A DNA stretch of 62,944 nt from a virus (Duplodnaviria; Caudoviricetes): IMG/VR virus record IMGVR_UViG_3300025853_000079, positions 1 to 62,944 of that record; one strand, written 5' to 3'. The translations under genes and the position numbers were made by a program. This document shows positions 1 to 51,950 of the stretch, piece after piece. The notes beneath the pieces are model-generated. The model had not been told where the DNA came from and ran no database searches. It worked only from the letters and a program-made list of their open reading frames with translations. Every line of letters begins with the position of its first letter. Within the stretch, counting starts at the first letter, position 1.

Positions 1-151
1 CTCGGTCTCTGATTTTGCCTCGCCTTAGTGCTTCGCGAGAATCGATTTCGCGCTCGCGACGCTGTTCGCGGTGTTCTTCCGCTGCCAGGCCGAGTTGCGA
101 GGCGACCATCGCCAGCCGGATGATTTGAGCGACCTGCGGACGTCTGCGTCG
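1..151. repeat. Terminal direct repeat, copy 1 (circular assembly overlap)
   Basis: Matches 62794-62944 except at position 16 (T vs C) and position 25 (T vs G). Confidence 0.95.
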
Positions 152-2682
152 GGCTTGCCGTCGAAGAAGATGCGGACGCGATCGTCGTCGTGATCACGCT
201 CGACCGAATGCCCTGCGACCTCGTGAACGGTCTCGGTGCCGGTCGGTGCGTTCTTCTGTGCTTCGACGCGGTTGCGGGCGTGCTCGGCGAACTTCCAGAT
301 TTTGTGACGCTTCGTGAAGACGGGTTTCTTGAGGTGCTCGGTCTGCAGCTTGTCGAGCGTGTCGAGCGCGTTCTGCACAACTTCCGGGCTCGCATCGCGA
401 ACGGCCGTCGAAAACCTGCCGACAAAATTCTGCTTGAACAACGCAGGATCGGAGCCCCGCATCTCGCCGGCCTCGAACGCCTTCATCGTGCCGATCATCC
501 GCTCGATCTGGCCGTGTATCTCGTTGTGCGACTCTTCCGCGAGCTGCTCGGACGTCATCGCGTTGCGGATGTTGCGACGCATCGCCGCCTGAGCTTTCTT
601 CGAGTAGTCCAGTAGCTCATCGAGGCGTCGTCGCTCGGTGTCGAATCGTTTCTGATTCCGACGCGTCGGGAAGTTGCTCGGTCCGGTGACCATTGGTGAC
701 AGCGTGCGGCTCTTCGCGTCGAGGTGCGCGTTCAGTTTCTTGAGGTAGCCCTCCTGGAACCGTGAGAACTCGCTATCGAGGACCATCTGCTGCTCGGGCG
801 ACTTCGCCATCTTGCTGACGTCATCCCAGACGGAATCCATGAACTGCTTGTATTGCTGCTGTTCCTGCTTTGCCCGTTCATCGGGCACCATCGAAATGCC
901 AGCGTAGGCCGCGGCTGCTCGCTTGTAGTCGACGTCGCTCTCGGAGATCGTCGGCCGCTTCGGGCTCTCGGTCTCCGGTTCCGCTTCGCCGCCGTTCGCT
1001 CGCTCCCATTTCGCATCCGCCTGCGTACCGAACGTACTCACGCCGCTGTCGATCGCGTCGCGGATATCGGCCTCATGCTGCTCGACGGTCTTCTTGCCAG
1101 TCCGGGCTCGTTTCTCGGCCAGCTCACCGATCAGGCGATCGCGGTGCTGCTCTTTGGTCTCACCGGCCGCCTCGTCGCTTCCGGCCTGCAGGTCGGGATA
1201 ATCCGCCAGAACCTCGGCCGGCACGTCCTTGCCGCGCTTCAAAGCATCCTCGACGAGCTTGCGGTGCTTCGCTTCCGGCATCCCCGTGACGCGCTTGACG
1301 GCGTCTCTCGGTCGCTGCCAGAGCTTCTTGCCCTCACGTTCCTCGGCCTTGCTGATCTTCTTGTCGAGCTCGCTTGTGTCCGGTGGTGCCGGTCGCGTTG
1401 AGCCTGTGCTCATCGCGTTGTCCCAGATATGCCGGTCGCTGATCTTCTTTCGCTCGGCCTGCAGGTCCGCCAGGCTCGGCTCGTCGTCGGCCGGCTCGCC
1501 GACCATTTCGACCTGCTGCGGGTTGGTGTCAGGCTCGAACAACGCGTCGGCCGCGTCAGACATATCCTGCCACGGTTCGCGTTCGTCGCTGTCGGTCGCT
1601 GCCTCAGTCTTCGGTGCCGCCTTGAAACTCTGCGGTTCGAGCCACTCGTAAGATTTGCCGTCGTCGTCCTCGGCGTCCCAGACCTCGCCCATGTCGTCGA
1701 CGGTCTTATTCGTCAGCGTCAGCACTGTTCCGGCCGGCGGAGCTCCGTGTCCCATGTCGTCGTCATATGGAGGCGACCAGAGCACCCGATGCCCTTCCCG
1801 CAGGTCGGCCAGGTTGAGCTCGCCGCCGTCGCTCTTCTTCGCTTCCTGCTTTGCCTTCCGTTCCGCGATCCGCTGCTGCCGGTTCTTCTCCCAGTCCGGA
1901 TCCGTCGTGTCGATCGTCTGGCCGCGGCCCTCTTCGACGTCCCTGATCGCGCTCGCGCCGACGCCATCGTCATAGAACGACTCGAGAGCCTTGCGATTCT
2001 CTGGGCTCGCAGCCCGCTCGGCCGGCGTCTGCTTCTCGCGGTCATCAGCAGCGTTTTTCGACCGCTGTGCCAGCCAACTATGTACTTCGTTTTTCTTCAG
2101 GAACGCGTATTCCTCATCCGGATCGTCGGCCGACGTGTCAAACACGACATAGTTCTTTGAGTCTTTGCGACCATTCGCCGCAACAGCCACGAACTGTGAT
2201 CCCGGCACCTGCAGCGCAGGCGTTCCCTCATGCTCGGTCCATTCGGGTTGATGTGCGTCCCACTTGCTGCTGTCGTTCTTCTCGTGCCACTCGTCCCGTT
2301 GCTTGTTCTCACGTTCCTGGCGGCGTTTGGCACCTGGTGCCATCTTTTCGATCGATTCCGCGTCCCGATCCTTCGGCTTGCTCTTCTTCTTCGGCTTCTT
2401 CTCGTCGCCCTTGCCGAAATCGTTGAGGTTCTTGATGCCCTTCTCAGCGAGAGCGGCCGGCCCCTTCACAATGTCGCCGTCGCCGTTGATCTGGACGTGA
2501 GCCCCACCGCTGCCGTCCTCGCCTTTCAGCGTGATCCAGCGGAGTTTGCCCTGCGTCTTTTTCGACGCGCGTTCTTCGCCGCTGAACAGATCGCGTTGGC
2601 CCGGAGCGTCCTTACGCTTGCGGGCGTACTGCTCGACGTTGGCGGCTGCCGCCGCGTTGATCATTGCGGTGATCGGGTGCAT
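25..2682 (-). CDS. N-terminal part of a giant polyvalent protein, with a DUF3560-like region
   Basis: 885-aa ORF. C-terminal SPMVTGPSNFP...RVRIFFDGKPD...GWRWSPRNSAWQRK resembles DUF3560-type domains. The TAA stop at 25-27 reads TAC in the other repeat copy. Confidence 0.8.
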   Translation of the reverse strand: MHPITAMINAAAAANVEQYARKRKDAPGQRDLFSGEERASKKTQGKLRWITLKGEDGSGGAHVQINGDGDIVKGPAALAEKGIKNLNDFGKGDEKKPKKKSKPKDRDAESIEKMAPGAKRRQERENKQRDEWHEKNDSSKWDAHQPEWTEHEGTPALQVPGSQFVAVAANGRKDSKNYVVFDTSADDPDEEYAFLKKNEVHSWLAQRSKNAADDREKQTPAERAASPENRKALESFYDDGVGASAIRDVEEGRGQTIDTTDPDWEKNRQQRIAERKAKQEAKKSDGGELNLADLREGHRVLWSPPYDDDMGHGAPPAGTVLTLTNKTVDDMGEVWDAEDDDGKSYEWLEPQSFKAAPKTEAATDSDEREPWQDMSDAADALFEPDTNPQQVEMVGEPADDEPSLADLQAERKKISDRHIWDNAMSTGSTRPAPPDTSELDKKISKAEEREGKKLWQRPRDAVKRVTGMPEAKHRKLVEDALKRGKDVPAEVLADYPDLQAGSDEAAGETKEQHRDRLIGELAEKRARTGKKTVEQHEADIRDAIDSGVSTFGTQADAKWERANGGEAEPETESPKRPTISESDVDYKRAAAAYAGISMVPDERAKQEQQQYKQFMDSVWDDVSKMAKSPEQQMVLDSEFSRFQEGYLKKLNAHLDAKSRTLSPMVTGPSNFPTRRNQKRFDTERRRLDELLDYSKKAQAAMRRNIRNAMTSEQLAEESHNEIHGQIERMIGTMKAFEAGEMRGSDPALFKQNFVGRFSTAVRDASPEVVQNALDTLDKLQTEHLKKPVFTKRHKIWKFAEHARNRVEAQKNAPTGTETVHEVAGHSVERDHDDDRVRIFFDGKPDADVRRSLKSSGWRWSPRNSAWQRKNTANSVASAKSILAKH

Positions 2683-2729: not shown

Positions 2730-3074
2730 TTACGTGACCGGCTGGATTTCGGCGTCGCTCATCGTGCCACTACCGAGCACCATCTTGATCCACGGGAACG
2801 CCGCACACTCATCCGGAACCGGGAACCAGCCTTCTGCCGCGGCCGTCAGGCTGACGTTCTCGAACGCCGTCCAGTCCGTATCAGCGGACGTGCGACGGTT
2901 CAGAACCGTGTAGTCGCCGCCCTCTGATGTTGCTCCGTAGAACGTGATCGTCGCAGCCGCCGACAAGTAGACCATGCCGGTGATTCCGCTGTACGGGATC
3001 GCCTCGGTCGTTCCTTCTGCTGCTGTCAGTGCCAGGGCTCCCGTGCCCCGTTTGTCTCGAGAGATTACTCCCAT
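2730..3074 (-). CDS. Small beta-rich protein, probably virion-associated
   Basis: Tightly packed ORF in the late operon; Thr/Ser/Gly-rich. Start chosen at MGVIS. Confidence 0.6.
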   Translation of the reverse strand: MGVISRDKRGTGALALTAAEGTTEAIPYSGITGMVYLSAAATITFYGATSEGGDYTVLNRRTSADTDWTAFENVSLTAAAEGWFPVPDECAAFPWIKMVLGSGTMSDAEIQPVT

Positions 3075-3079
3075 TGGTT

Positions 3080-4561
3080 CTATCCTTTTCTGCTGTCGCA
3101 GGAACAAAGCATTCTGAGCATTCGCCGCCGCCGGGCGTTCGGATCAGTGCCGCCACCGCCGCCACCGCCTCCAGCCGCGCCGTATGTGACTTCAAGGTAT
3201 GGATCGTTCGCGCTCTCGGCGGTATAGACCGACGTGTTCTGCGAACCACCCGGTCCTGATGTTGAGCCGATGTAGTCCAGATTTGACCGGCAGCAGAATT
3301 TCACGATCCCTGAACCGTCGACGGCTGTTTGCAGGTGCGTGATGCCCGTGATATTCAGCGCAACCGGCGTGTCGTCGAGCTGAAACGCATCCGTCAGATC
3401 AGTGTCGTGATCGTTGAACGTGTTCTGATAGTCCGTCGTCGTGTGCCCCGTGTTGCTGGCGGTCGTCGCGCCGGTCAGCCTTACGTCGCGGTTGTATCCC
3501 CCCGTTCGGACGCAGTGCCAGTTTGCACTTTCGACCGATTGACCAGACAACGATGACACGTCGAAGAGTGTGATAAAGCGGTGATTTGTGATGGTGCTGG
3601 TGTCGTAGGTAATCCCCGCCGTGGTCTGGTGCGATGCGCTGTACGTGGAACTGCCGTTTGCCGCGATCACGGTGGCCCAATCGCCGTTTCGAGCGCCCAC
3701 GTGACCGTCCCACGTCGTGGTCTCTGAGTGCGGGTCCGGGTAGAACGTTTGCACGTCATCACTGATTAGCAACGAACCCTCCGCCGCTGCTGCGTCTACC
3801 AGCGCGGCCGGGATTGTCTTCGTGAGCCTAATCGTATCCGGATCAACGATCGTGGCAGTGACGGTCGCGGACTGCGTCACCAGCGTGCCGTCTGCTTTCC
3901 AATACCAGACCTGCGGAGCCTTAAACCCGCTGCCTCGCTGCTGGTCGAGCTGTCCGTCGAAGTAATGGACGGCAGCCCCTGCTGTCGGTATCTGGATCGT
4001 GTTGTCGATCGCCGACGCCCAGAGAGACCCGTCTGGCATCTTCGCGCGTTCGCTGCCGATCCATACCTGCGCTTTCGAGCATGTAATCAGCCAGCTGGCC
4101 TGTAGCGGTTGCCCGATGTGCCTGGACTCCAGCCTAGCCGGATCGATGACTGCTTCCCGCGTTGCCCGCGGGGCTCGCCCATGCCAGACCGTGTATCTCA
4201 ACGAGAGCCCTGGCCCCCAGGCGTCATCATACCAGACCTGCGAGGGTTGACTGTCGTCAATGCGGCCCGCGACGGCTCCGATCCCTTCTGGCGTAATCTC
4301 AAGGACCATCGCCGGGCTGGTGATCAACGACCGATTGAACACGTCCCAGCGGTTATTGATCTCGAGAACGGCCGTCTCATTGGCGAACTGCGGAACGTGA
4401 AACCGGAACGGTCCGGAATCGCTGACGAACGCGGAACCGTCGTTGCGGAATGCCGCGTTGATGGCATCCCAGCTGCCGCCGTCGTTGCGGTATCCGATCC
4501 ACTTGCCGTGTACCTGGGCGCGATTGCCAGACTTCCACGTATTGAATGCAACAGGTCTCAC
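3080..4561 (-). CDS. Virion structural protein with a C-terminal DNRLRE/CBM-like domain
   Basis: 493 aa, overlapping the portal stop. FYPDP...RFITLFDVSSL...SANDPYLEVTY pattern followed by a poly-Gly linker. Confidence 0.6.
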   Translation of the reverse strand: MRPVAFNTWKSGNRAQVHGKWIGYRNDGGSWDAINAAFRNDGSAFVSDSGPFRFHVPQFANETAVLEINNRWDVFNRSLITSPAMVLEITPEGIGAVAGRIDDSQPSQVWYDDAWGPGLSLRYTVWHGRAPRATREAVIDPARLESRHIGQPLQASWLITCSKAQVWIGSERAKMPDGSLWASAIDNTIQIPTAGAAVHYFDGQLDQQRGSGFKAPQVWYWKADGTLVTQSATVTATIVDPDTIRLTKTIPAALVDAAAAEGSLLISDDVQTFYPDPHSETTTWDGHVGARNGDWATVIAANGSSTYSASHQTTAGITYDTSTITNHRFITLFDVSSLSGQSVESANWHCVRTGGYNRDVRLTGATTASNTGHTTTDYQNTFNDHDTDLTDAFQLDDTPVALNITGITHLQTAVDGSGIVKFCCRSNLDYIGSTSGPGGSQNTSVYTAESANDPYLEVTYGAAGGGGGGGGTDPNARRRRMLRMLCSCDSRKG

Positions 4562-7356
4562 GACAGTCCCTCGGCAAACGGCAGCGATAGATCGCCGTTG
4601 GTCATCCAGTCAATCAGCTGCTTCCAGGTTGCCGGCGTCACGGTGCCCACTTTCCAGCCGGCCGTAAACGCGTCGCGGTACGCCTTGCGGGCTTCCGCCT
4701 CGGTGTGGAACCCGGTCATCACCTTATGCTCGTCAAATCGCCCGTTGTCCTGGTTGATCTGATCGACGACGTACACCAGATCGCAGGCGGGATCCGGCCC
4801 GATGAAGACGTCGAGCTGGTCGCCGTCGTTGCCCTCGGTGCGTCGCAGGTAGCCGTAATGCGCCGGCATCGTCACGGACCACTCTTTGCCGTTCGCGTCG
4901 GTGCCGCTGCGTGTCGAGCCCTTCGGATTCTCGATCGTGACCTGCAGGCCGTGATTCCAGAATTTGCCCTTCCGGTAGTTCCCGCTTTTTGCCTGCGCCT
5001 CGGTCGGGCTCGTGTCGGTCACGGCCGCGGCTTCACGGCAGGCCGTCGCGACGTCTCGCGCGTAGTGCTCGCTGTCCTGATCGGCGTCGCCGTCCAGGTC
5101 GAGCGAAACACTCTCGTCATACGTCTGAATGATCGCAGCCCGGAGCTCATCCAGAACGCCGCGATGCCGCAGCTCGCGATAGACCTCATTCTCGACGGAC
5201 GTCTCGCCGTCCTCAGCAATGCCCTCGCGTCGCTTCGCCTGAAGCCGCTGCAGGAGCGTCTTCAGCTGCTCGTGATTCCGTCGTTGAATACAGAGCTCGA
5301 TGCAGCGTTCCGCGACGTCGGCCTTGTAATCGACGACAGCCGCGTCAGCTTCGCCGTCGTCGTCGTCCTCGGATTCTTGAACCCATTCCTCGGATACGAG
5401 GCTGTACCTCGCTCCGGGCGTGCCGCCGCCGTCCTCGAGCTCGACGAACAACTCGACCTGATGGCCACCGATTCGAACGTCGTGCTTCAGGTTCCAGAGT
5501 GCTCCGTGATCGTAGAGATACTCGTCGAGAAACTCGCGATCGATGCCCTCGATCTCCGGATCAACGACGAGGTGAACGTCGATGTCGCTCTGCTCGGTGA
5601 ACCGGTCCGGATTCGCTGCGCTGCCGGCAATCACGATATCGGTGACCTGATCGCGATCGATCGCCAGCGTGCCGGCAAAGTCTTCCGCGATCTTCCGGAG
5701 CTTCTCGACGACTTCGGGAGCCGTGACGTCGAAATCACCGCGTTCGGGCTCATCGTCGCGTTCGTACTTCTCGGGCTCGACGACAGCGCCAACTTTCGCG
5801 CCCATATCCGCCACTGCGGCCAGTGTTCGAGGATCCGGCATCGCACCACCGCCGGCCGTACCGTCGTCCATACCCGGCATTCCCTCGCCGCCGCCCTGCG
5901 GGCTCGGCAGAACGCGGTCGGTTTCCTTCGGGACACTCGCGCCGATCGAATCGAGAACGTCGCTCTCTTTGATCCGGGCACCCATCTCCCAGGCACCTTT
6001 GAACGCTCCGAGCTTGCTTTCCGGATTCGGGTCTTCCGTCTCGATGACAAACCGGCAGTGGATATCGGACGCCGCCGGGAAATTGAATTGCTTGACCGGC
6101 TCGACCAGTTCGTACGTCAGCGTTTCTTCAAGGTTCCGGGCGTCGTACGTGACGATCTGCATCAGAGTGTCGAGGTGCAGGTCAGCCAGGCCGGATCCCA
6201 GCCCGGTCGCGTCCGCTTCGCTCGTCAGCGTCTGACCTAAGATGTATCGCTTGATCCGGTGCCCGAAATACTCCTCGAGCAGGTTTTTGATGATCTCCGC
6301 ACCGGCCATGCCGGGCTCAACGATGTGGACGTTGTAGAGCGGTGCGTCCTCACCCATCGGCTTCGGAAACAGAATGACGCCCTTATTTCCGCTGCCTCGC
6401 TGCAGGGCCGCCGTTTCGACGGCGTCTTTAGCCTCGGACGAACCCATCGGGTATTCCCAGACTTCGATGCCGGCTGCCGAGCGTTCCAGGTATTCGAGCA
6501 GGTAGGCCTTGCACTCCTGCTGCTGGAACCACTCCCAATAGATTCGCGATCGAATGCCGACGCCGTGAACTGAGCCAGCGTCGATTGGGTTTTCCCAGGG
6601 AGCATCCTCGATCTGGTGTCGATGGATTGCCAGCAATCGCCGTTGATAGTGCGGCAGGAAGTAAGCCATCCCGCGATCAGTCGCCGCGAGGTAGTTCTTG
6701 TCAATGTGGCTTGACGCCGCGAGAGCCCGGTTGATCAGGATTCCGACCGGGCCGAGATCGCGGTTGTACGTGCCGCTCAGCCAGCTTGGGTCATCGTGCT
6801 GGAAGACCAGCTTGTCGCCGTTGACCGGGCTCCAGCCATACCCCTCGGCCAGCGTTGGCGCGGTCGGCATGATGTAAGATTCGCCCTGAATCCGCTGCTT
6901 CGCCCAGCGGTGCTGAACGGCATACTTGCCATACCAGATCGCTTCGAGCAGGTTGCGACGGTACTCCGTGAAGCGTCGCATACGCTTCAGAATCATCGTC
7001 AGCTTCGTGCAGAGCTCTTTCTGCTCGGGGCTGTTCTCGTCTTCGGGCTCAATGTGCCAGTCGAGTAGGGCCGTGAGCCGCTGCCGGGCTTCAAGGCACT
7101 CCATGATGCCGACGTCGTTCCGCATGAAACGAGCGTTGTCGCGGCTGGCTTTGATCGCCTCGTCGCTGTCTCGGTAGACGCGGGCAATCGAGCCCAGGAG
7201 CGAGTTGAACGTCAGGACGTGCGGCAGAGGCTGCTTGCCGGCGTTCGGCAGGCCGCCACTGAGAAACGACGTATCGACGATATTCGCAGTCGTGCGATTG
7301 AGCTGCGTCGTGATCTGCTGATAGCTGTCGGGGATTCGTGGCGCCGCGCCGATCAT
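4558..7356 (-). CDS. Mu gp29/DUF935-like portal fused to a pol-beta-type nucleotidyltransferase and an inorganic pyrophosphatase domain
   Basis: Portal motifs LLEAIWYG and ILGQTLTS. NTase motif IAGSAAN...SDIDVHLV...VELFVE. InPase motifs GNYRKG, IENPKGS.RSG, HYGY, DGDQLDVFIG, FDEHKVM.GF. Confidence 0.85.
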   Translation of the reverse strand: MIGAAPRIPDSYQQITTQLNRTTANIVDTSFLSGGLPNAGKQPLPHVLTFNSLLGSIARVYRDSDEAIKASRDNARFMRNDVGIMECLEARQRLTALLDWHIEPEDENSPEQKELCTKLTMILKRMRRFTEYRRNLLEAIWYGKYAVQHRWAKQRIQGESYIMPTAPTLAEGYGWSPVNGDKLVFQHDDPSWLSGTYNRDLGPVGILINRALAASSHIDKNYLAATDRGMAYFLPHYQRRLLAIHRHQIEDAPWENPIDAGSVHGVGIRSRIYWEWFQQQECKAYLLEYLERSAAGIEVWEYPMGSSEAKDAVETAALQRGSGNKGVILFPKPMGEDAPLYNVHIVEPGMAGAEIIKNLLEEYFGHRIKRYILGQTLTSEADATGLGSGLADLHLDTLMQIVTYDARNLEETLTYELVEPVKQFNFPAASDIHCRFVIETEDPNPESKLGAFKGAWEMGARIKESDVLDSIGASVPKETDRVLPSPQGGGEGMPGMDDGTAGGGAMPDPRTLAAVADMGAKVGAVVEPEKYERDDEPERGDFDVTAPEVVEKLRKIAEDFAGTLAIDRDQVTDIVIAGSAANPDRFTEQSDIDVHLVVDPEIEGIDREFLDEYLYDHGALWNLKHDVRIGGHQVELFVELEDGGGTPGARYSLVSEEWVQESEDDDDGEADAAVVDYKADVAERCIELCIQRRNHEQLKTLLQRLQAKRREGIAEDGETSVENEVYRELRHRGVLDELRAAIIQTYDESVSLDLDGDADQDSEHYARDVATACREAAAVTDTSPTEAQAKSGNYRKGKFWNHGLQVTIENPKGSTRSGTDANGKEWSVTMPAHYGYLRRTEGNDGDQLDVFIGPDPACDLVYVVDQINQDNGRFDEHKVMTGFHTEAEARKAYRDAFTAGWKVGTVTPATWKQLIDWMTNGDLSLPFAEGLS

Positions 7357-9545: not shown

Positions 9546-11096
9546 TCAGCGTCGACCTTCGCCGCGATCAAGCTGCATCGATTCGTGTCGCCGACGGATC
9601 CGGACGCTCGACGCCGAATGATCGTGCGACGTTCGCGTAATCGTCTCGCCGCGGCGTGCCGCTTCCGTGTAGACCAGATAGCGCAGCGCGTCGACGGCGT
9701 GGTCGTCCTTCTTCAGCGGCTTGGGCTTCGCGTCGCGAGGATTCGCCCCGGTGACGCTGCCTCGCTCCCAGCGATACGTGCGCATCTGCCGCACGAGGTT
9801 CGGGCACCGCTCTCGATGGATGTAGAGCCGACACTGGCCGCCGAGCGTCTTGTCCGGCTTCAGCATGTAACGAACGTGCTCGATGCCCTCGTAAACCGAG
9901 TTGTTCGCGGCCGTCATGTTCAGCGGTCGGCAGTCGGGCTTGTACTGCGTTAGCTTCGTCGCGAGCCGAATCCCGTCCGGGTTGCTCGGGTCAGCATAGG
10001 TCGTCCCGAACCAGGGTTCATTGTCGTTCCAGTCCCAGTCATCAGAAATGCGTGACACTTCCTCGAGGTGATCGGCCGTCGTCATCGTCTGATCGGTGCT
10101 GTAATACTCATCGAAGACGAACCACTGGCCGGCCTCGGTCTTGTACGCCCAGAGACAGCAGAACGCGTTTTCCGGGCCGGCTCCCCAGTCGATTGCGCGT
10201 CGGTATTCGACGTTCTCAGGGAAATCGATCACGTCGTCGCCGGGAGCGTGTACCTGCGAATTCCAGGTCTGGTAAATCTGCCCTTCGAACTGCCCGAACT
10301 GGCCACGGCAGCGGACCGGCTTCACCTCGTCGGGAAGCATCCCGAAAAACTCGTCAAACCACTCCTGTGACACCTGACCGGCATCGACGGCACACTCGGT
10401 GTTCGACCAGTAGACAGCCCAGCCAGGCGGCAGGTCGTCCTCGTCGATCATGTCCTGCAGCTCGATCGACAATGCGGGATCGACCGGCGTGAACTCGGCC
10501 AGCTTGCTGCCGGGGAATTCGTACTCGCGGGATCCGCGGAGCACTTCCTCGAGGATGCCCCAGGGGAACTGCTCGACGAACAGAAAGCCGCCGATTGCGC
10601 GGGCCTGCATCTGGCTCCGGCCCTGTCGGTAACTCTTGAACTCCAGCACCCAGTTCTTGCCAGGCCGGCCTTCCCACGGCTTCAGCGGCACGCGTTTCGG
10701 CCAGTTGTCTTTCGAGCTCATCCACGCGATGCGATCGAACTCAATTTCGCCGTGTGGACAGATCGAGCGGCCGTAGAGCTTCTCGGCCCAGCAGGCTTCC
10801 ATGACCTGCTCGTAGCTCTCGGCAATGACCCAGAACGGAGTGTTCTCGCGCGGAGGCGGCTGCTCGTGCAGCACGAACTTCATCGCCTTGGCGAGCCCGA
10901 GCGTCGTCGTGCCGGCACCGTTTCCGCCCAGCATGAACGAGACGCCGCGGTGCTTCGAGTTGAAATATCCGGCCTGTTCGTCGCCCTTCTGCGGCTGATC
11001 AGGGCGAGGCTTGAACGTGCAGAACGCGTCATCGAGTGTCGAGACAACGCGGCCGGCTTCGTGCTCTGAATCGATCTCCGGACCGAGCAGCGGCAT
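9546..11096 (-). CDS. terL: Terminase large subunit
   Basis: Walker A-like GGNGAGTT; nuclease motifs AIDWG, FVFDEYY, YADPS and KDDHAVDALRY. Confidence 0.9.
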   Translation of the reverse strand: MPLLGPEIDSEHEAGRVVSTLDDAFCTFKPRPDQPQKGDEQAGYFNSKHRGVSFMLGGNGAGTTTLGLAKAMKFVLHEQPPPRENTPFWVIAESYEQVMEACWAEKLYGRSICPHGEIEFDRIAWMSSKDNWPKRVPLKPWEGRPGKNWVLEFKSYRQGRSQMQARAIGGFLFVEQFPWGILEEVLRGSREYEFPGSKLAEFTPVDPALSIELQDMIDEDDLPPGWAVYWSNTECAVDAGQVSQEWFDEFFGMLPDEVKPVRCRGQFGQFEGQIYQTWNSQVHAPGDDVIDFPENVEYRRAIDWGAGPENAFCCLWAYKTEAGQWFVFDEYYSTDQTMTTADHLEEVSRISDDWDWNDNEPWFGTTYADPSNPDGIRLATKLTQYKPDCRPLNMTAANNSVYEGIEHVRYMLKPDKTLGGQCRLYIHRERCPNLVRQMRTYRWERGSVTGANPRDAKPKPLKKDDHAVDALRYLVYTEAARRGETITRTSHDHSASSVRIRRRHESMQLDRGEGRR

Positions 11097-12906: not shown

Positions 12907-13500
12907 TTACGTTGCCTGCTTCTCGAAACCAATTCCTCGCATTCCTGCACGCTCTGCAGCTCGAGGTATCGCACCGCTCCCCGCAAATGGGTCGAGCAGG
13001 AGGCCACCCTCGACGGCAAATGGCCTGACTGCCCAGTCTGCAACTTCGGGCGGCAACTCTGCACGTCGACCATTACGGATCGGCTCTGCTGTAATGTGGT
13101 CAAGCATGTCGGCGGGAATTCCCTCACCCTTGCCTTTTCGCATCGCCACAGCGTTGACCGTCGCCCACTGCCAGCCGGGAGTTCTCGTTTTCGTTTTCGC
13201 GACCGGCTTGCACCAAGTACCGATGCGGACAGGCTCCAGAATCCCACGAACTGCCTCGACCATGTAGGCCGTCGAACGCCAGGACGACGCACAGAACACG
13301 ATCATCCAGCCGCCCCGCTTCAAGCGGACCGCAGCCTCGCGGAGAACGACAGCGACAGTCGCGCTCAATGCGTGCTCGCCGCCACTTCCCCCGAATGCGT
13401 AAGGCGGATCGGTCACGATCACATCCGGAGTCAACTCGAACTCTGAAAGTAAATCGATCGCGTCGCCGCGTCTGATCGAAAACATCTCGCTCTCTGTCAT
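12907..13500 (-). CDS. N6A/N4C DNA methyltransferase (beta class)
   Basis: VIVTDPPY catalytic motif and LLDPFAGSG SAM-binding motif. Confidence 0.85.
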   Translation of the reverse strand: MTESEMFSIRRGDAIDLLSEFELTPDVIVTDPPYAFGGSGGEHALSATVAVVLREAAVRLKRGGWMIVFCASSWRSTAYMVEAVRGILEPVRIGTWCKPVAKTKTRTPGWQWATVNAVAMRKGKGEGIPADMLDHITAEPIRNGRRAELPPEVADWAVRPFAVEGGLLLDPFAGSGAIPRAAERAGMRGIGFEKQAT

Positions 13501-13573
13501 TCCGTTCTCTCCAAAAGTAGCGCTGGACAGTTTTCCAAAAGTAGCGCTGGACACGGCAGCCGCCTGCTGTGCG

Positions 13574-14242
13574 TTATCCAGCAAACGGCAGCACGCCCTG
13601 ACGTAGACGCTCGACCGCTTTCTGGCAGTATTCCTCGTTTATCTCTATTCCAACCGCACGCATTCCGGCCAGCTTCGCCGCAACCAATGTCGTCCCCGCC
13701 CCCATGAACGGATCAACCACACTTGTTACGTCATTAACCATGCTCAGGCACCACTGAATCAACCTCAACGGCTTCTCGGTCGGGTGGTGCTTTCCGTTCG
13801 TGTGCGCCTCAACCCGGCTCAAGCGAAACGTCTTGCACGGCTTATCCAGCGTTGTCCACGCTGCCTCAAAATCGCTGCCGCTGAATTCCTGCACCTTGTC
13901 CCACGTCAACCAGCATCGTGACGGCTTCACCGCAAAATAGTTGCCGCCCCAAATGATCGCGTTTTCTGCCAACTCAATTTGTGAATCAATCACCCACTGG
14001 CTCGGCGTTGCCGCATCCCAGTCTGGTGACTCTTTGAAATGCTTTTCCCATTCACCGTTCCCGCCCGTCAATCGCTTCCCTAACCCATACGGCGGATCAG
14101 TTAACAACAAGTCAAACCGCCCCAACCACGGCAACACTTTCCTGCAATCGGCGTTGTAGATCGTGATTCCACCCTGATCGTAAAAAGGCTGGATAACAAA
14201 CGGTTGCACCGGAGCGGCGGTCGTCGTCGCATCTGAATTCAT
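13574..14242 (-). CDS. N6A/N4C DNA methyltransferase (beta class) inside an integron-type cassette
   Basis: LLLTDPPYG, HPTEKP, VVDPFMGAGTT and GIEINEEY motifs. Confidence 0.9.
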   Translation of the reverse strand: MNSDATTTAAPVQPFVIQPFYDQGGITIYNADCRKVLPWLGRFDLLLTDPPYGLGKRLTGGNGEWEKHFKESPDWDAATPSQWVIDSQIELAENAIIWGGNYFAVKPSRCWLTWDKVQEFSGSDFEAAWTTLDKPCKTFRLSRVEAHTNGKHHPTEKPLRLIQWCLSMVNDVTSVVDPFMGAGTTLVAAKLAGMRAVGIEINEEYCQKAVERLRQGVLPFAG

Positions 14243-16965: not shown

Positions 16966-18087
16966 TCAGGAGTTGTTGCAGGCGTCAAACGCCTGAATGA
17001 ACGCCGCAGCTACCTGCGGCACGATTGCATTGCCAAATCCCTTCAACGCTCCGACGGGGTTGTACCAGTGCTCCGCCGCGGCTTGTCCGTCGGAGCTGCG
17101 AACAGCCACGCGACCGGATACCCCATGAGCCAGCACGGAAGCTGAGGGTCCAACACGCCGGGCCCTTTCGTCTCGGCAGGGGGCGATTCGGTATTCGCTC
17201 CATGCGTCCGAGCGGCATCCGCTGGCAGCGAGCCGCCCGTCTGATTCGGCCCGCCCTTGCTGCCGTCCGTCGCCCGCGGCGTATTCCAGCCTGTGATCTG
17301 GCCGCACAGTGTCTGGCCGGTATTGTGTTTTGAGCCGGGTTTTCTCGTTGCTGTCTCGTTCCTGCCGTTCCGCGAGTCGTTGACTGTTGGCGTTGCCCAC
17401 CCGTTCATCATCTCGGCAATCGCCCCGAGACATTGTTCCGAGTGACGGGATCGAGTTTTCCAGTTCTCCCGCATCATCGAGCCGTTCGGGTTTACCGCTT
17501 CCGTCGCCATGCCCGGCGTGTCCTTGTGATCGCGAGCCGATGGACTCACCCACCCAGAACAGACGTTGTCGGATGTGCGGTGCGCCGACGCTGTGTGCGC
17601 CCAGAACTGCCGCCCCGACGGCGTAGCCCTCAGCTTCCAAGTCTGCCGATACTCCATCGAACCAGACGGGAGCATCTCCTGCAGACGCTGGCCGATCGCC
17701 TTTGACAGTTCCGACGACCGCTGCGCTGGCGACTTGTTCGCCGAACACGATCCCGGGTCGCTGGGCCCGTATGAGTTCGCAGAAGACTGGCCACAGGTGC
17801 CGCTCGTCCTGGTGTCCGTTTCGCTTTCCGGCTGCTGAGAATGGCTGACAGGGGCACGAGCCGGTCCAGACGGATCGATTGTCGTCCCATCCGGCCAGTC
17901 GAAGAGCAACTGACCAGCCACCGATGCCGGCGAAGAAATGGCACTGTGTGAATCCGTCGAGGTCATCCGGTCGCACCTCCGTGATCGATCGTTCGTCGAC
18001 GACTCCCGGAGCAATCAGCCCCGCGTCGATCAGATTCCGCAGCCACTGAGCCGCGTACACGTCGTGTTCGTTGTAGTAAGCCACCAT
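16966..18087 (-). CDS. C5 cytosine DNA methyltransferase, main frame
   Basis: FFAGIGG (motif I), GSCPCQPFS (IV), EQV (VI), PHIRQRLF (VIII) and GNAIVP (X). Confidence 0.9.
   Translation of the reverse strand: MVAYYNEHDVYAAQWLRNLIDAGLIAPGVVDERSITEVRPDDLDGFTQCHFFAGIGGWSVALRLAGWDDNRSVWTGSCPCQPFSAAGKRNGHQDERHLWPVFCELIRAQRPGIVFGEQVASAAVVGTVKGDRPASAGDAPVWFDGVSADLEAEGYAVGAAVLGAHSVGAPHIRQRLFWVGESIGSRSQGHAGHGDGSGKPERLDDAGELENSIPSLGTMSRGDCRDDERVGNANSQRLAERQERDSNEKTRLKTQYRPDTVRPDHRLEYAAGDGRQQGRAESDGRLAASGCRSDAWSEYRIAPCRDERARRVGPSASVLAHGVSGRVAVRSSDGQAAAEHWYNPVGALKGFGNAIVPQVAAAFIQAFDACNNS
17043..18014 (-). CDS. Overprinted alternative-frame polypeptide of the C5 methyltransferase (putative beta subunit; start uncertain)
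   Basis: Three W-x-[ST]-P repeats and a motif IX-like LDPQLPCWLMGYPVAW in a different frame inside the gene. Confidence 0.6.
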   Translation of the reverse strand: MLRESSTNDRSRRCDRMTSTDSHSAISSPASVAGQLLFDWPDGTTIDPSGPARAPVSHSQQPESETDTRTSGTCGQSSANSYGPSDPGSCSANKSPAQRSSELSKAIGQRLQEMLPSGSMEYRQTWKLRATPSGRQFWAHTASAHRTSDNVCSGWVSPSARDHKDTPGMATEAVNPNGSMMRENWKTRSRHSEQCLGAIAEMMNGWATPTVNDSRNGRNETATRKPGSKHNTGQTLCGQITGWNTPRATDGSKGGPNQTGGSLPADAARTHGANTESPPAETKGPGVLDPQLPCWLMGYPVAWLFAAPTDKPRRSTGTTPSER

Positions 18088-18128
18088 TTTTGATCTACCA
18101 GCACCGTGCGGTGCTCCAGTTTGTTCAG

Positions 18129-18554
18129 TTATTCCGCGAAGACGCGGATTCGAATGGCCGGTCCGTGCTTCCGATGCCCGGCGTCCTGCCGGTAGTCGCA
18201 TTGGGTGATCCACTTCGGGCTGTCGTCGTGAAACCAGCCGATCGCGACCAGAGCGTCAACGAGCTCTTTGGCGTTGCCTCGACCGATGCTGTCGAAGTCC
18301 CAGAAATGCTGCCCTTTGCCCAGGATTCGCGTGATCTCGATGCGGACGGGATGCCCGAATGGCTTCCGTGCGAGCCCCAGCAGTGACAGGTCACGCTCGA
18401 ACTCGTCGCGGCGTTTCTTTGCAGCCTGCCAGCTCTTCTGACGCCCGTCGTTCTCGTTGGTGAGTTCCAGCGGCAGGAGCTTGTCGACCAGTGATTTTTC
18501 GCGTGACGCATTCATTTGGTTAGCGCTAACCTCTGTTTGAATATATACTGCCAT
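18129..18554 (-). CDS. RusA-like Holliday junction resolvase
   Basis: WDFDSI...KELVDALV...GWFHDDSPKWI acidic triad; start uncertain. Confidence 0.7.
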   Translation of the reverse strand: MAVYIQTEVSANQMNASREKSLVDKLLPLELTNENDGRQKSWQAAKKRRDEFERDLSLLGLARKPFGHPVRIEITRILGKGQHFWDFDSIGRGNAKELVDALVAIGWFHDDSPKWITQCDYRQDAGHRKHGPAIRIRVFAE

Positions 18555-35240: not shown

Positions 35241-37548
35241 CCTCGTCCAGCGGCCGCGGCTCCTGCTTGGTCGTGGCCTGCTGCAGCTCGACGACCGGAA
35301 CACCGAGAAACTGTTGAACCCGCTCCATCGTCGGCTGCCAGTTCTCCGTCAGCTGCTCGTAAGTGACCTCGAGCTTGTCATGCAGGTCGAGACGCCTGAG
35401 CCGCTCAGCGAGTAGCTGATCGTTCCACTGTTTGAACCATCGCAATTCATCGCGACTGACGTCGATGACCGGCCGGTGTTCCTGCTGCTGCTCTTTCCAG
35501 CGGCCGATTGTGTTCGCGACCTTCCAGCTGGCGAACTGCGCGAGCTGATCCTCTCGCCGCAGGACGATGATCTTCACGAACGGATCGTCTGCGATCTCGT
35601 CCCAGCCCGTCGCCCATTGCTCCGGATCGTTGTCCCACGGCTGGAACGCCAGCAGCTTGAAGCCAGCAGCGATGCACGGTCCGATTCGCTCCCAGGCTGC
35701 CCGAACGCGTTCGCGACCTTCGCTCGGTAGCGGGATGCAGTGCCCAGCGTTGAGCACCTCGCCGCGTGTCTGAATCTCGGGATGCTTGCCCAGTGAGCTG
35801 ATCAGCAGCGTGGAACCGGTCCGCGGCTGCGCGAGCACGATGAACCGCTCCGGGCCGCAATCGTCCCGCTCGAGGTGCTCGCACTCGACCGACCAATCCA
35901 GCAACGATCGCCACTGGCCGGCCCTGAGTTGCTCGTAGAACGCCCCGTCGTAGTCCGCGGTCGATCCGTCGCGAGTGATCGAAAACCGCCTGAGAACGCC
36001 CCTGCGGAGCAGGACGCACCCGAAACCGTTGCCGGTCACCTCGACGACGCCGGCACCACCCTGCAGGCAGCGGCCAATCGTGTGCCAGGCCACAATCCCG
36101 GGCTGGTATCGGTGCCGGTACGCCCCGCTGACGCTGGCGACGTCGCCCTCCATCGAGGCCGTCAGCCGCTCGATGGCATCTGCCGGCGGAATGATGTCGT
36201 CCTCAACGATCACCGCGAAATCGGTCGACAGCTCGGCCGCCATGCGGCGATAGATACGCACGACGGCCGTCTGTACTTCGTACCGCGTCGCCCCGTCGTG
36301 CCGATCAGCGTCGGCGACGCCCGCTGTCGCCGCCTCGTGGCGATACAGCCGCACGTCCGGGTAATCCGTCACGTCGACCCATCGACGCACGAGGGCGTGA
36401 AATCGGGCGTTCTGGGACGTGTCGCAGAGCACTAGCCGAATCTGGTCCCGCGGCCACGTCTGCGACTCCAGCCACGCTCGGAACTTCGGCCATGCCCACT
36501 CGCGGCCGGACAGCGCGACGAACAGTGTCAGCACCTCGCTCTGCATCCCGAAACGCACGGCCCACGGATTCTGTTTTACCTTGCGGAGCCGTGAGTGTGA
36601 GTGCTGCCGATACTGATAGATCGCTGTCGATTTCCGAAACTGCCACCCATTCGCCGCCAGACGCCGCCAGACCGCCCAATCCTCGAACGATTCCATCGAG
36701 ACCGAGCTGCAATCGACATTCGACGCAATCAGAGCCGTGCGTCGCACGATCGCCCCGGCATGGATGTGGTTTTCCTGGTTGAGCCGCAGCTGGTCCGGTG
36801 CCGGCATTTCCCACAGTTCTGCCGAGTTCCCGAAACACTGCATGTCCGAGTACACCGACCCAACCGTGTGCTCGTCCAGCAGCGGCAGCCCTTTTTCGAG
36901 GTAGTCGAGCGGCAGCAGATCATCCGCGTCAAGAAAGACGACAAACCTGGCCGACGTCCTCGCGAGCCCGTCAAGTCTGGCGTTGTGTACGTTTCGATGC
37001 TCGACCCGCAGGTATTTAACGCCTTGGCTGGCAAACCGGGCCGCTACGTCGGCCGTGTCGTCGTCGCTCGCGTCGTCAACGACGATAATCTCGGCCGGCT
37101 TCGTGGCGATAGCTGATTCGAGGCAGGCTGCGAGGTAACGGCCGTAATTGTGGCACGGGATGACGATCGCTACCGGATGCGGCCCGGACAGTTTTCGGAC
37201 AGCTGCTGTCGCACTCTGTCCGCTTTCTGTCCGCTTCAGGTCGCTGCAGGATCCGCACCAGCTGATGCTCTGATCGGTCGCCCTCCGGAGCTCCGTACAG
37301 CGGCCGTGCAGCTCGCAGCTGTATGACGGGATCGACGTCTGGCAGGACACGCAACCGGCGCGGCCCGCATAGCCGCCGCGATGCTCGCAGCGGTTTTTCT
37401 GCCAGTAGGCCACCTCGGCGGCGTCTTCCGCCTGTCGCCTCGCGTCCCGGTGCCGTCTCGCCGGCCTCTTCCCGTGAACCGGGCACGAGCTCGCGGGCTG
37501 TCGGCTGGTCGCGCACTTGCCATCCGGCATAACCTGCGGGCATTTCAC
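35191..37548 (-). CDS. Cys-rich N-terminus, two GT2/GT-A glycosyltransferase domains and an Stf0-like sulfotransferase
   Basis: IVIPCHNY, VVDDASDD and FLDADD; second domain IVEDD and GFGCVLL; C-terminal PRTGSTLL, GFKL, LRREDQLAQFAS and VTYEQL. Confidence 0.85.
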   Translation of the reverse strand: MKCPQVMPDGKCATSRQPASSCPVHGKRPARRHRDARRQAEDAAEVAYWQKNRCEHRGGYAGRAGCVSCQTSIPSYSCELHGRCTELRRATDQSISWCGSCSDLKRTESGQSATAAVRKLSGPHPVAIVIPCHNYGRYLAACLESAIATKPAEIIVVDDASDDDTADVAARFASQGVKYLRVEHRNVHNARLDGLARTSARFVVFLDADDLLPLDYLEKGLPLLDEHTVGSVYSDMQCFGNSAELWEMPAPDQLRLNQENHIHAGAIVRRTALIASNVDCSSVSMESFEDWAVWRRLAANGWQFRKSTAIYQYRQHSHSRLRKVKQNPWAVRFGMQSEVLTLFVALSGREWAWPKFRAWLESQTWPRDQIRLVLCDTSQNARFHALVRRWVDVTDYPDVRLYRHEAATAGVADADRHDGATRYEVQTAVVRIYRRMAAELSTDFAVIVEDDIIPPADAIERLTASMEGDVASVSGAYRHRYQPGIVAWHTIGRCLQGGAGVVEVTGNGFGCVLLRRGVLRRFSITRDGSTADYDGAFYEQLRAGQWRSLLDWSVECEHLERDDCGPERFIVLAQPRTGSTLLISSLGKHPEIQTRGEVLNAGHCIPLPSEGRERVRAAWERIGPCIAAGFKLLAFQPWDNDPEQWATGWDEIADDPFVKIIVLRREDQLAQFASWKVANTIGRWKEQQQEHRPVIDVSRDELRWFKQWNDQLLAERLRRLDLHDKLEVTYEQLTENWQPTMERVQQFLGVPVVELQQATTKQEPRPLDEVIRNPDQLPESLASPV

Positions 37549-47860: not shown

Positions 47861-48240
47861 TCGGCACCGCCTTTGGTTCTGGTGGCGTGCCCCTTCTCGA
47901 CTTGTGTCTCAGCAACGCTCTGCAAGTCGCCCTCGGCGTTCGTGAACCAGACGTCGCCGACGAAACGGCCGAACGTCAGCAGATCACTCGCGCGATGTGA
48001 GCCCGGTATCTGCAGCGTGACCCGCTGACCTGCCATCAGCAGACGCCGCAGGTTGTTGGCCGAGTCGATCGCGGCCGCCTTGACCTCGGGATCCTTTGCC
48101 CGGAGCTCTGGCGCCCAGCAGTCTTCCAGGCGGATCGACATTTCCGGCAGCAGCGGCTGAACAACCAGTGTGTCGCCGTCGATAATTCGCACGACGACCG
48201 CATCTGTAACAAGGCCACGCTCGGGAGGCTTCTTTTTCAT
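47857..48240 (-). CDS. Thermonuclease (SNase)-family protein
   Basis: VVRIIDGDTL, IRL...APEL, FGRFVGDVW and GHA. Confidence 0.85.
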   Translation of the reverse strand: MKKKPPERGLVTDAVVVRIIDGDTLVVQPLLPEMSIRLEDCWAPELRAKDPEVKAAAIDSANNLRRLLMAGQRVTLQIPGSHRASDLLTFGRFVGDVWFTNAEGDLQSVAETQVEKGHATRTKGGAE

Positions 48241-48971
48241 ATCACCAGAGCCTCCGCGTACGACTGCGCCGCATGGTCCGAGAACGTGTCACCCAGCGAG
48301 TAACTGGTGAACTTCAGCCAAGCCAGATGCCAGAATGACGGCTCAACGATAGCCCCCTTCTTCTGCCGCACGTAGCAGAGCCGGGAGAGATGCTGGAACC
48401 CGCGAAAGACTGGCAAATGCGGGACGCCGTCATTGCTGTGCCAGTGATACCAGGCTCCGCTGATTGCGGGGTGAGGCCTTCGGTCCTTAAACGTCTTCGG
48501 AGTCCCGAACGTGTAGCATTGCCGCACCGTCCGCTGACAGGCCGCAATGTTGGCGATGGCCCCGCCCTGGGAATGCCCTGTGACATGAATTCGCCGGTCT
48601 CGCAAATGGTTGTCTTCAACCAGTTCAGTCAGCGGTCGAGCCAGTTTCAGATACTCGCGCAGAAATCCATTGTGAACGCGGTATTGCCCCATCTGGCCGG
48701 TTGATCGGTCCGCGTTGGCTATCCAGTCCTCAGCCGTCGGGTTGCTGCCCTCGAAGGCCATCACGACGTCCTGCTGATCCCAGAGAACGAGCATCGACTG
48801 TGAGCCGTGCGTAATCCTCTCGCAGCCGTCGGCCCGCCAGTAGGCGGCAATCTCTTTCGGCAGCATCAGACAGCTGCGGTAAGCCTGCACGCTCATCTGG
48901 GCGAATCGCCAGGCGAGTGCCTGCGACCAGTCGTCGCCATGCAGGTCAGATTGACAGCCTTCAAAGATCAC
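48237..48971 (-). CDS. Class 3 lipase
   Basis: AFEGS, VHNGF, VTGHSQGGA, YTFGTP, DGVPHLP and a C-terminal DH. Confidence 0.85.
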   Translation of the reverse strand: MIFEGCQSDLHGDDWSQALAWRFAQMSVQAYRSCLMLPKEIAAYWRADGCERITHGSQSMLVLWDQQDVVMAFEGSNPTAEDWIANADRSTGQMGQYRVHNGFLREYLKLARPLTELVEDNHLRDRRIHVTGHSQGGAIANIAACQRTVRQCYTFGTPKTFKDRRPHPAISGAWYHWHSNDGVPHLPVFRGFQHLSRLCYVRQKKGAIVEPSFWHLAWLKFTSYSLGDTFSDHAAQSYAEALVI

Positions 48972-51892: not shown

Positions 51893-51922
51893 GGTTTCGT
51901 GCCCTCCAGACTGGCGACCGTG

Positions 51923-51949
51923 TAGCAAATCACGCGAGCGATTGTCGAA
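51923..51949 (-). promoter_or_regulatory. Putative late promoter motif A, copy 4
   Basis: TAGCAAATCACGCGAGCGATTGTCGAA. Confidence 0.7.
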
Positions 51950-51950
51950 G

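Follow-up and report, generated by a model that had tools for sequence, protein, structure and literature searches.

A tyrosine-centred motif in the head proteins of a metagenomic Caudoviricetes phage as a candidate cleavage site of its own prohead protease

The trimming of packaged proteins at a short sequence code by a prohead protease is known from phages T4, phiKZ and SPN3US, and polyvalent proteins and portal fusions are also known. In T4, the protease gp21 cuts at L/I-x-E sites, degrades the scaffold and trims packaged, injected proteins, and a capsid-targeting sequence is present on the internal proteins and on Alt. Herpesviruses make an assemblin–scaffold precursor with a release (R) and a maturation (M) site of consensus V/L-x-A↓S (the arrow marking the bond cut), and the catalytic order of assemblin is His-Ser-His. 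In SPN3US, the protease gp245 cuts 9 head proteins at 14 sites, the portal and gp245 itself among its targets; a propeptide can carry several motif copies, with a preference for Val at P4 and for Ser at P1′ (PMC10052503). Iyer et al. described portal and MuF fusions as well as polyvalent proteins (with ART-PolyVal, InPase, ParB-like and nucleotidyltransferase (NTase) domains) that are encoded with head genes and are thought to be packaged, processed and injected (Iyer et al., 2017; PMC5512222). InPase was proposed to remove the pyrophosphate (PPi) of the NTase reactions, and zincin-like MPTase domains were proposed for the processing (Iyer et al., 2017; PMC5512222). The accessible part of that article contains neither a linker motif nor a prohead-protease route (“linker” occurs 0 times and “prohead” once). 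Here, a short motif centred on tyrosine is analysed in the IMG/VR virus record IMGVR_UViG_3300025853_000079 (Duplodnaviria; Caudoviricetes), where it recurs in the portal, in a giant polyvalent protein and in p546, a predicted protease-scaffold protein of 546 amino acids (aa). The whole record (62,944 b, rated 100% complete) is referred to as the window.

In its sharper form, the motif reads [VP]-[ED]-[KRQN]-Y-[SA]-[RKA]. We interpret it as the sequence recognized and cut by the prohead protease formed by the N-terminal domain of p546, an interpretation to which we assign a probability of about 0.55. The idea derives from an original prediction, made from the DNA alone, that strings of the type E-x-Y at domain junctions of head-associated proteins are a release code for a protease. 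All 12 strings quoted in that prediction are present in the portal, the giant protein and p546. The pattern suggested for counting them, E-x-Y-[ASEGDQ], was too loose and was replaced by the core [ED]-[KRQN]-Y-[SA]-[RKA], in which, according to family alignments, Tyr and the residue at +2 are as informative as Glu. The codons differ between copies; thus, the motif is a protein-level feature rather than a DNA repeat.

Enrichment in the window was assessed in a set of 54 proteins (19,060 aa), for which the open reading frames (ORFs) were chosen by us according to GC content at codon positions. As E-x-Y had been picked after the proteins were seen, all 1200 gapped dipeptide patterns with gaps of 0-2 were scanned. 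Within-protein shuffles predict 7.6±2.6 copies of E-x-Y in the portal, the giant protein and p546 together, compared with 22 observed, a count reached in 0/2000 shuffles; the other 51 proteins contain 21 copies against 22.6±4.5 expected. The excess is confined to these three proteins, in line with the enrichment in head over non-head proteins that was to be checked. In them, E-x-Y ranks 1/1200 (z 5.2) and Y-x-R ranks 3/1200, whereas E-x-Y ranks 697 in the remaining 51. The 5-mer [ED][KRQNH]Y[SAEQ][RKA] occurs 8 times in the three proteins against 0.23 expected (0/2000 shuffles) and once elsewhere, in the adaptor, against 0.52 expected. A form anchored differently, [RK]-Y-[ASG]-[KR], is weaker than this Glu-anchored 5-mer (3 vs 0.31 in the window). 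The signal is densest in p546, which alone has 8 copies of E-x-Y against 1.7 expected and carries Glu at -2 of 8/17 tyrosines. Cut patterns ending in Glu, such as L/I-x-E of T4 or A/S/G-x-E of the giant phages, are not among the 8 top-ranked patterns listed; the core is centred on Tyr, with Glu at -2.

The portal consists of a Mu-type core, a linker, an NTase-like domain, a second linker and an inorganic pyrophosphatase, with the following features.

4558-7356, minus strand: portal, 932 aa (Pfam, PHROG)
5758..5772, minus strand: EKYER, motif copy 1, portal aa 529-533, between portal core and NTase
5083..5739, minus strand: NTase-like domain, portal aa ~540-758 (phrog_36119 at aa 544-752, E 6.2e-27)
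5056..5070, minus strand: EHYAR, motif copy 2, portal aa 763-767, between NTase and pyrophosphatase
4603..5001, minus strand: inorganic pyrophosphatase, InPase PF18823, portal aa 786-918 (E 4.5e-51)

The core is covered by Pfam Portal_Mu (PF06074) at aa 78-471 (E 7.2e-35; 121.3 bits against a cut-off of 23.9), and the match to phrog_113 ends at aa 526. The interval 5059-5772 corresponds to portal aa 529-766, i.e., from EKYER to EHYAR, and brackets the NTase domain. Of the two enzymes named in the original prediction, the pyrophosphatase is supported by its PF18823 match, and the other is best described as NTase-like: NTP_transf_2 (PF01909) matches with E 0.0036 and 18.1 bits, below the 21-bit cut-off, and structural matches extend over 540-758 (Atlas feature score 0.95), one structural row reaching the bar for NTP_transf_2. 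The domain also contains G578-S579 and D591-x-D593, in keeping with G-[GS]...D-x-D, which we take to be the Pol-beta-type nucleotidyltransferase signature. InPase modules are also found in polyvalent or DarB-like proteins of cultured phages.

The whole portal was modelled with AlphaFold2 from a 46-row alignment (mean pLDDT 76.9). Confidence falls below pLDDT 50 at 487-529, 534-538 and 750-766, and apart from 487-538 and 750-766 the C-terminal half has no long stretch of low confidence; the NTase-like domain between them is predicted to be folded (pLDDT mostly 82-91). EKYER and EHYAR each lie at the C-terminal end of a low-confidence linker, directly before the next folded domain, and residues 530-533 exceed pLDDT 50 inside the linker. 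For the portal, the claim that the motif marks domain junctions thus holds in the AlphaFold2 model, and the Pfam and PHROG limits agree with it.

The second carrier is encoded across the ends of the record, which share a 151-b overlap (window 1-151 and 62794-62944); the genome is therefore circular. Its features are as follows.

25-2682 and 58999-62943, minus strand: giant polyvalent protein, two ORFs (N-terminal and C-terminal part, respectively)
2620-2634, minus strand: EQYAR, giant protein aa 17-21
62782-62796, minus strand: ESYSQ
62728-62742, minus strand: EKYGQ
62362-62376, minus strand: EDYQQ
61678-61701, minus strand: KYAREHYD

On account of the circularity and the overlap, we read the two ORFs as one protein of probably ~2158 aa; a split reading would leave ~340 b untranslated before the next ATG ORF. 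The two overlap copies differ at positions 16 and 25. Within the giant-protein frame, the latter mismatch gives a TAA stop in the copy at 25-27, and the opposite end of the record has TAC (Tyr); it could be due to population heterogeneity or an assembly-end error. The C-terminal part contains ART-PolyVal (E 3.3e-15), the kinase-like Zeta_toxin (E 3.2e-10) and a region matching phrog_21, in which a ParB-like HHR motif was noticed by eye. The giant protein thus joins several effector domains in a single chain whose gene stands among head genes, as is the case for polyvalent proteins. A Pfam search detected no MPTase family in the giant protein or in the portal. The proposal that motif copies lie at the module borders of this protein stands for part of them: KYAREHYD lies 10 aa past the end of ART-PolyVal, and ESYSQ and EKYGQ lie 13-30 aa past the end of the phrog_19458 match, but the E-x-Y copies EGYLK and ELYLN, both outside the sharper consensus, fall inside domains. 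In addition, a module of ~55 aa occurs twice, at 2443-2607(-) and 61489-61677(-) (local alignment score 169). It reads P-G-Q-R-D-L...K-T-Q-G...R-W-[IV]-T..., matches no Pfam family, and each copy follows directly after a motif (EQYAR and KYAREHYD, respectively). The start of this module is also found in three related proteins (P0038, P0073 and L020), in two of which the motif is inside the module, as ...Y-E-K-R-W-I-T.

The third carrier, p546, is encoded between the giant-protein gene and the genes for the decoration and capsid proteins, i.e., in the head module.

57081-58721, minus strand: p546, 546 aa
58488..58502, minus strand: EKYQR, p546 aa 74-78, at the start of the protease domain
58062..58526, minus strand: protease-like domain, p546 aa ~66-220 (AlphaFold2 mean pLDDT 85.9)
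58014..58061, minus strand: hairpin with QYERD (aa 221-225) and V-E-R-Y-S-A (aa 231-236), release-site candidate
57150..57971, minus strand: scaffold part with six copies, ENYDA 251, EEYAS 373, ENYER 414, ERYSK 444, ENYQR 482 and ERYCL 520

EKYQR, ENYER and ERYCL had not been part of the original set of strings; EKYQR is not conserved, the family consensus having Phe at this place. The true start of p546 is probably Met7 or Met11 rather than the GTG further upstream (58691-58721(-)), as homologues align from residue 11-17. By sequence, p546 matches no Pfam family at E<=0.01 and no PHROG at E<=0.001, and a PDB sequence search returned low-complexity noise only (Bcl-2, E 0.015). A single-protein scan of viral contigs found no relative, and an exhaustive HMMER search of metagenomes found 976, 315 of them at E<=1e-30. 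A few members of the family match coiled-coil or scaffold-type Pfam entries (T4_CASP in 2/95), and no protease family is among the first 25 Pfam families listed for 95 members.

AlphaFold2 predicts for p546 a confident beta-rich domain at ~66-220, a hairpin at 221-233 (strands 221-225 and 229-233), disorder at 237-259 and then helices. The C-terminal half is rich in Pro, Ala and Glu and continues as a coiled-coil. When the predicted domain was compared with 48161 PDB chains, the top two were T4 gp21 (5jbl_A; Z 6.2, rmsd 4.2, 117 aligned) and the varicella-zoster virus (VZV) protease (1vzv_A; Z 6.1, rmsd 2.9, 100 aligned), and the proteases of human cytomegalovirus (HCMV) and Kaposi’s sarcoma-associated herpesvirus (KSHV) ranked 4 and 39. 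It is unlikely that two capsid proteases would head such a model-based list by chance. Foldseek against the PDB gave nothing at E<=0.001, with the KSHV protease among the weak rows, and BFVD gave 11 matches at E<=1e-3, including entries annotated “capsid maturation protease” and “peptidase”; lower BFVD rows include “prohead scaffold and peptidase”, “prohead serine protease” and “Mu-like prophage I protein”. Residues invariant in 95 aligned members are H88, N114, G129, H130, R187, S188, E190, P204 and P213. From the predicted fold and these residues, we conclude that p546 is a predicted protease-scaffold fusion of an unnamed family; the fold match and the invariant His, His and Ser support the function originally proposed for it.

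The motif was then counted in relatives, using the strict form [ED]-x-Y-[SAEQDRT]-[RKQ], in the best 150 of 976 relatives of p546 and the best 120 of 310 portal homologues. In the p546 relatives, E-x-Y occurs 540 times (214.5±12.5 expected) and the strict motif 304 times (35.7±5.8 expected). The residues favoured around Tyr are V at -3, E at -2, K/R at -1, S/A at +1 and R/K/A at +2. The best-conserved copy, V-E-[KR]-Y-[SA]-A at 231-236, immediately follows the protease domain; in it, Y234 is Tyr in 150/151 members, and the flanking positions have V in 122, E in 95, K/R in 141, S/A/T in 138 and A in 120 of the 151. Two further sites are kept in position, [ED]-R-Y-[SA]-[RK]-L near 444 and I-x-E-N-Y-[QS]-R-I-P near 484, and the remaining copies vary from member to member.

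The portal homologues share the Mu-type core, followed by extensions of widely differing length and content. The cores of the 120 portals (57,003 aa) contain 14 strict motifs, compared with 126 in their extensions (62,156 aa). Of the 96 with an extension of at least 200 aa, 41 have the motif 55-115 aa past the core anchor, compared with 1.9±1.4 in shuffles (maximum 6 in 300). The 23 unextended portals end 53-136 aa past the same anchor (median 81), i.e., where the motif lies in the extended ones; thus, a cut at the motif would restore a portal of normal length. The strict motif precedes InPase by 15-30 aa in 43/81 InPase-bearing portals, and a relaxed R-Y-[SA] occupies the same position in most of the remaining 38. 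The strict motif is absent upstream of InPase in six cultured phages without the p546 family, namely Serratia phage MTx, Vibrio phage douglas, Ochrobactrum phage POI1126, Xanthomonas phage Rb1, Bacteroides phage BF1-TP2 and Rhizobium phage TM3_14A, and BF1-TP2 has the near-match L-D-Y-A-E-R ~27 aa upstream. The motif is therefore not part of the InPase domain itself.

The head genes of Serratia phage MTx (MK618717.1, 7360-14537) are arranged in the same way: they encode a portal carrying a C-terminal InPase, a MuF protein, a gp21-like protease of 511 aa whose long tail is acidic and rich in Pro, and a capsid protein. As its portal, gp21-like protease, MuF protein and capsid protein show no excess of E-x-Y, MTx may serve as a natural contrast to the present phage. 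A sequence link between p546 and the MTx protease was considered and rejected: BLASTP gave E 0.051 over 25 residues (V-P-x-x-x-E-H-E), and the family HMM gave no match.

A further set was selected by the protease alone. An IMG/VR scan with the protease alignment yielded 101 relatives, from which 80 loci were kept, and ORFs on the plus strand were classed by phmmer against the window proteins. Strict-motif counts in the 80 loci, observed against expected, were as follows.

Protease-scaffold (n=81): 150 vs 18.0
Giant-like proteins (n=6): 14 vs 2.9
Large unclassified or giant-like upstream proteins (n=39): 34 vs 16.8±4.1 (0/500 shuffles reach 34)
Portal beyond residue 500 (n=22): 8 vs 3.5±1.8 (12/500 shuffles reach 8)
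Capsid (n=78): 10 vs 7.5
Decoration, tail and tape-measure-like proteins: 0-2 copies

The terminase (14 vs 4.2) and the adaptor (10 vs 3.9) also show an excess in these loci, mostly from a few conserved internal positions. Within the p546 family, the scaffold signal is general; that of the cargo is evident among closer relatives and patchy among distant ones.

Taken as a cleavage site, the motif suggests the following course of head maturation. During prohead assembly, p546, with its protease and coiled-coil scaffold, would form the core. The portal would be built in with its NTase and pyrophosphatase hanging from the inward-facing C-terminus, and the giant polyvalent protein would be taken up likewise. 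The protease would then free itself at V-E-[KR]-Y-[SA]-A just past the catalytic domain, chop the scaffold into small peptides at the other copies and cut the cargo at the inter-domain linkers. This would bring the portal back to its usual length and leave the NTase, the pyrophosphatase and the giant-protein modules unattached inside the head, from where they could exit along with the DNA. Cutting by p546 and injection of the products are steps we infer; cleavage at the motif and injection of the enzymes set free are suggested by analogy and by the placement of the motif. Because the portal remains in the virion, enzymes attached at its inner end could reach the host only if freed.

The bond cut is most likely the one after Tyr, with Val at P4, Glu at P3, Tyr at P1 and Ser/Ala at P1′. 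A six-residue footprint from -3 to +2, an invariant aromatic residue and a small residue after it all fit a protease site. The placement likewise fits a release role: the best-kept copy follows the protease domain, many copies lie in the scaffold, one lies at each cargo linker, and the first portal copy is situated where unextended portals end. The many scaffold copies fit degradation into small peptides. A complex prediction of p546 aa 60-219 with the portal linker 500-548 scored 0.17 and 0.00 against a mark of 0.32 in a run without controls and counts neither way. For the metagenomic family of p546 as a whole (~1000 cluster representatives), it is a tentative proposal, at somewhat worse than even odds, that the Tyr-centred V-E-[KR]-Y↓[SA]-[RK] frees the protease, dissolves the scaffold and cuts enzymes off portals and giant proteins.

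Comparison with the described systems shows partial likeness to each. With herpesviruses, the phage would share the protease-scaffold fusion, the conserved site right after the protease domain, further sites near the scaffold C-terminus and Ser/Ala after the presumed cut; unlike here, herpesviruses have no cargo substrates, and their catalytic order is His-Ser-His instead of the His-His-Ser of p546. T4 offers a parallel in short N-terminal leaders ending in a motif, comparable with the first 21 residues of the giant protein; its motif is different, however, its portal is not an enzyme carrier, and p546 has no established membership in the gp21 sequence family. The proteases of the giant phages (SPN3US gp245 and phiKZ gp175) resemble the proposed system in their gp21 fold, which for p546 is a tentative prediction, in their short motif and the cutting of many head and ejection proteins, including the portal and the protease itself (PMC10052503). 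A cut after Tyr would moreover place Val and Ser/Ala at the P4 and P1′ positions preferred by gp245. In contrast, the giant-phage enzymes cut after Glu at A/S/G-x-E and remove N-terminal propeptides, whereas here Tyr is invariant, the protease is fused to the scaffold and belongs to an unrelated sequence family, and the portal bears enzymes at its C-terminus instead of a propeptide at its N-terminus. The Mu portal gpH is reportedly trimmed in virions; the accessible parts of two articles on Mu contain no cut-site data for cleavage of the portal or by the protease (PMC2628397; PMC3185693). A literature search limited to an open-access library found nothing on a Tyr-centred prohead-protease motif or on a portal–NTase–pyrophosphatase fusion. 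The new elements are a predicted protease-scaffold family for which no curated model exists, a motif centred on Tyr, and the use of this motif at junctions between enzymes borne by the portal.

Several observations weigh against the proposed cleavage site. With respect to the protease, the fold match of p546 (Z ~6) is below the search tool’s own safe-match level, the order His-His-Ser departs from that of assemblin, and tblastn against 50,697 phage records gave no match, i.e., p546 has no cultured relative. The portal core matches, among cultured phages, only Mu-like ones, at 26-27% identity. As for the motif, the homologue sets share ancestry, so that their counts are inflated and do not represent independent events, and the major capsid protein has 0 copies. 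An unbiased pattern scan of the portal extensions places E-x-Y at rank 141 only, with Y-x-R at rank 7, and in the 80 loci the enrichment of portal extensions is weak, 16/22 long portals lacking the strict motif past residue 500. Some copies lie 8-40 aa from the C-terminus (P0021, P0029, P0019, P0037 and L006), a position no less suited to a docking peptide than to cleavage. The motif tyrosines of the scaffold also sit in islands that are more hydrophobic and helix-like than those around other tyrosines (0.228 vs 0.192). As a proxy for linker context, hydrophobicity gave a mixed picture, for in portal extensions the context of motif tyrosines is less hydrophobic than that of other tyrosines (0.202 vs 0.233) and does not differ from all positions (p 0.07).

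The main rival, which we consider rather unlikely, is that the motif is never cut and acts as a docking or capsid-targeting peptide, binding the scaffold-protease core or the inner capsid surface and recruiting cargo in the manner of an encapsulin cargo-loading peptide or the C-terminal coat-binding element of a scaffold. The confinement of the enrichment to head-interior proteins suits such a role, as do copies near N-termini (aa 17 in the giant protein, aa 28-61 in relatives), the several portals with copies close to their C-termini, the small ordered island in disorder at portal 530-533 and the hydrophobic context in the scaffold. However, docking needs neither 8-9 copies in one scaffold nor a copy at each inter-domain linker, and enzymes fused to the portal are already anchored in the head, where they would need release and not targeting. 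Docking also leaves the position of the best-conserved copy, right after the protease domain, to be accounted for, and a footprint from P4 to P2′ with a small residue after Tyr would be more typical of protease sites. Less probable still is the absence of any single shared function, the copies being structural elements of unrelated modules or scars of module shuffling with cassette leaders. EQYAR and KYAREHYD both head the duplicated ~55-aa module, the copy 22 aa before InPase travels with its module within the portal family, relatives of the terminase, adaptor and capsid have single conserved buried sites, and Y234 could be structural in its hairpin. On the other hand, the flanks of most copies are unlike and their codons differ, the same consensus of 5-6 residues appears at non-homologous junctions in three protein families, and InPase modules outside the lineage are without the strict motif.

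Cleavage at the motif by another enzyme, either a host protease or a 585-aa protein with a weak metallopeptidase match, appears very improbable. The latter, encoded at 50249-52006(-), is the only other protease-like hint in the genome, and zincin-like peptidases have been proposed for the processing of polyvalent proteins (PMC5512222); its Peptidase_MA_2 match (E 0.0032, 17.7 bits) is nevertheless far below the cut-off of 32.4, and its gene is in the tail module. Furthermore, motif density is highest in the p546 family, with which the motif travels, and the giant protein has no detected MPTase domain of its own. An effect of chance or composition is the least credible of these explanations. 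The motif was chosen after the proteins had been seen, and all three are rich in Glu and Arg, but the count was reached by none of the 2000 composition-preserving shuffles, the pattern took first rank of 1200, other Glu-rich phage proteins are without the motif, and the enrichment was replicated in the 150 and 120 homologues and in the 80 loci, so that the counts already refute this explanation.

If the motif is a cut site, it would provide the first specificity for a widespread, uncharacterised prohead protease family and explain how portal-fused enzymes could still reach the host. It would also supply a simple sequence rule by which those polyvalent-protein domains that are set free as individual injected effectors could be predicted in uncultured phages, and the processing step proposed for these proteins becomes testable by one co-expression experiment. 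Should the family-wide Tyr code be true as well, the portal would double as a twelve-copy launch rack for injected effectors, and the injected proteome of thousands of uncultured phages would be readable from sequence alone.

Nearly all genes of the window are on the minus strand. On the circular map, the head module has the order portal, p493, p125, giant protein, p546, decoration/cement protein, major capsid protein and adaptor. Its further members are listed below.

9546-11096: large terminase
3080-4561, minus strand: p493, no known family
2730-3107: p125, no known family
56596-57015: decoration/cement protein
55442-56491: major capsid protein
54878-55378: Mu gp36-like adaptor

The lone sharp copy of the motif outside the three carriers is DRYER, at aa 99-103 of the adaptor (window 55070-55084(-)), and a few adaptor relatives have [ED]-x-Y-E-R at this position. 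The product of p493 has no match in Pfam or PHROG; its gene lies directly downstream of the portal, the usual place of a MuF-type head protein, and its C-terminus has eight consecutive Gly and then a tail that is rich in Arg and contains Cys.

Other genes of the record include one at 35191-37548(-), adjoining the tail genes, for a 785-aa protein with a family 2 glycosyltransferase (E 2.1e-28) and a sulfotransferase (E 4.1e-11), whose role may lie in modifying the host surface or the virion. The tail module includes, at 48237-48971(-), a gene for a class 3 lipase/esterase (Lipase_3, E 3.7e-13). Finally, the intervals 12907-14242(-) and 16966-18213(-) contain two adjacent N6/N4 DNA methylase genes and a C5 cytosine methylase.

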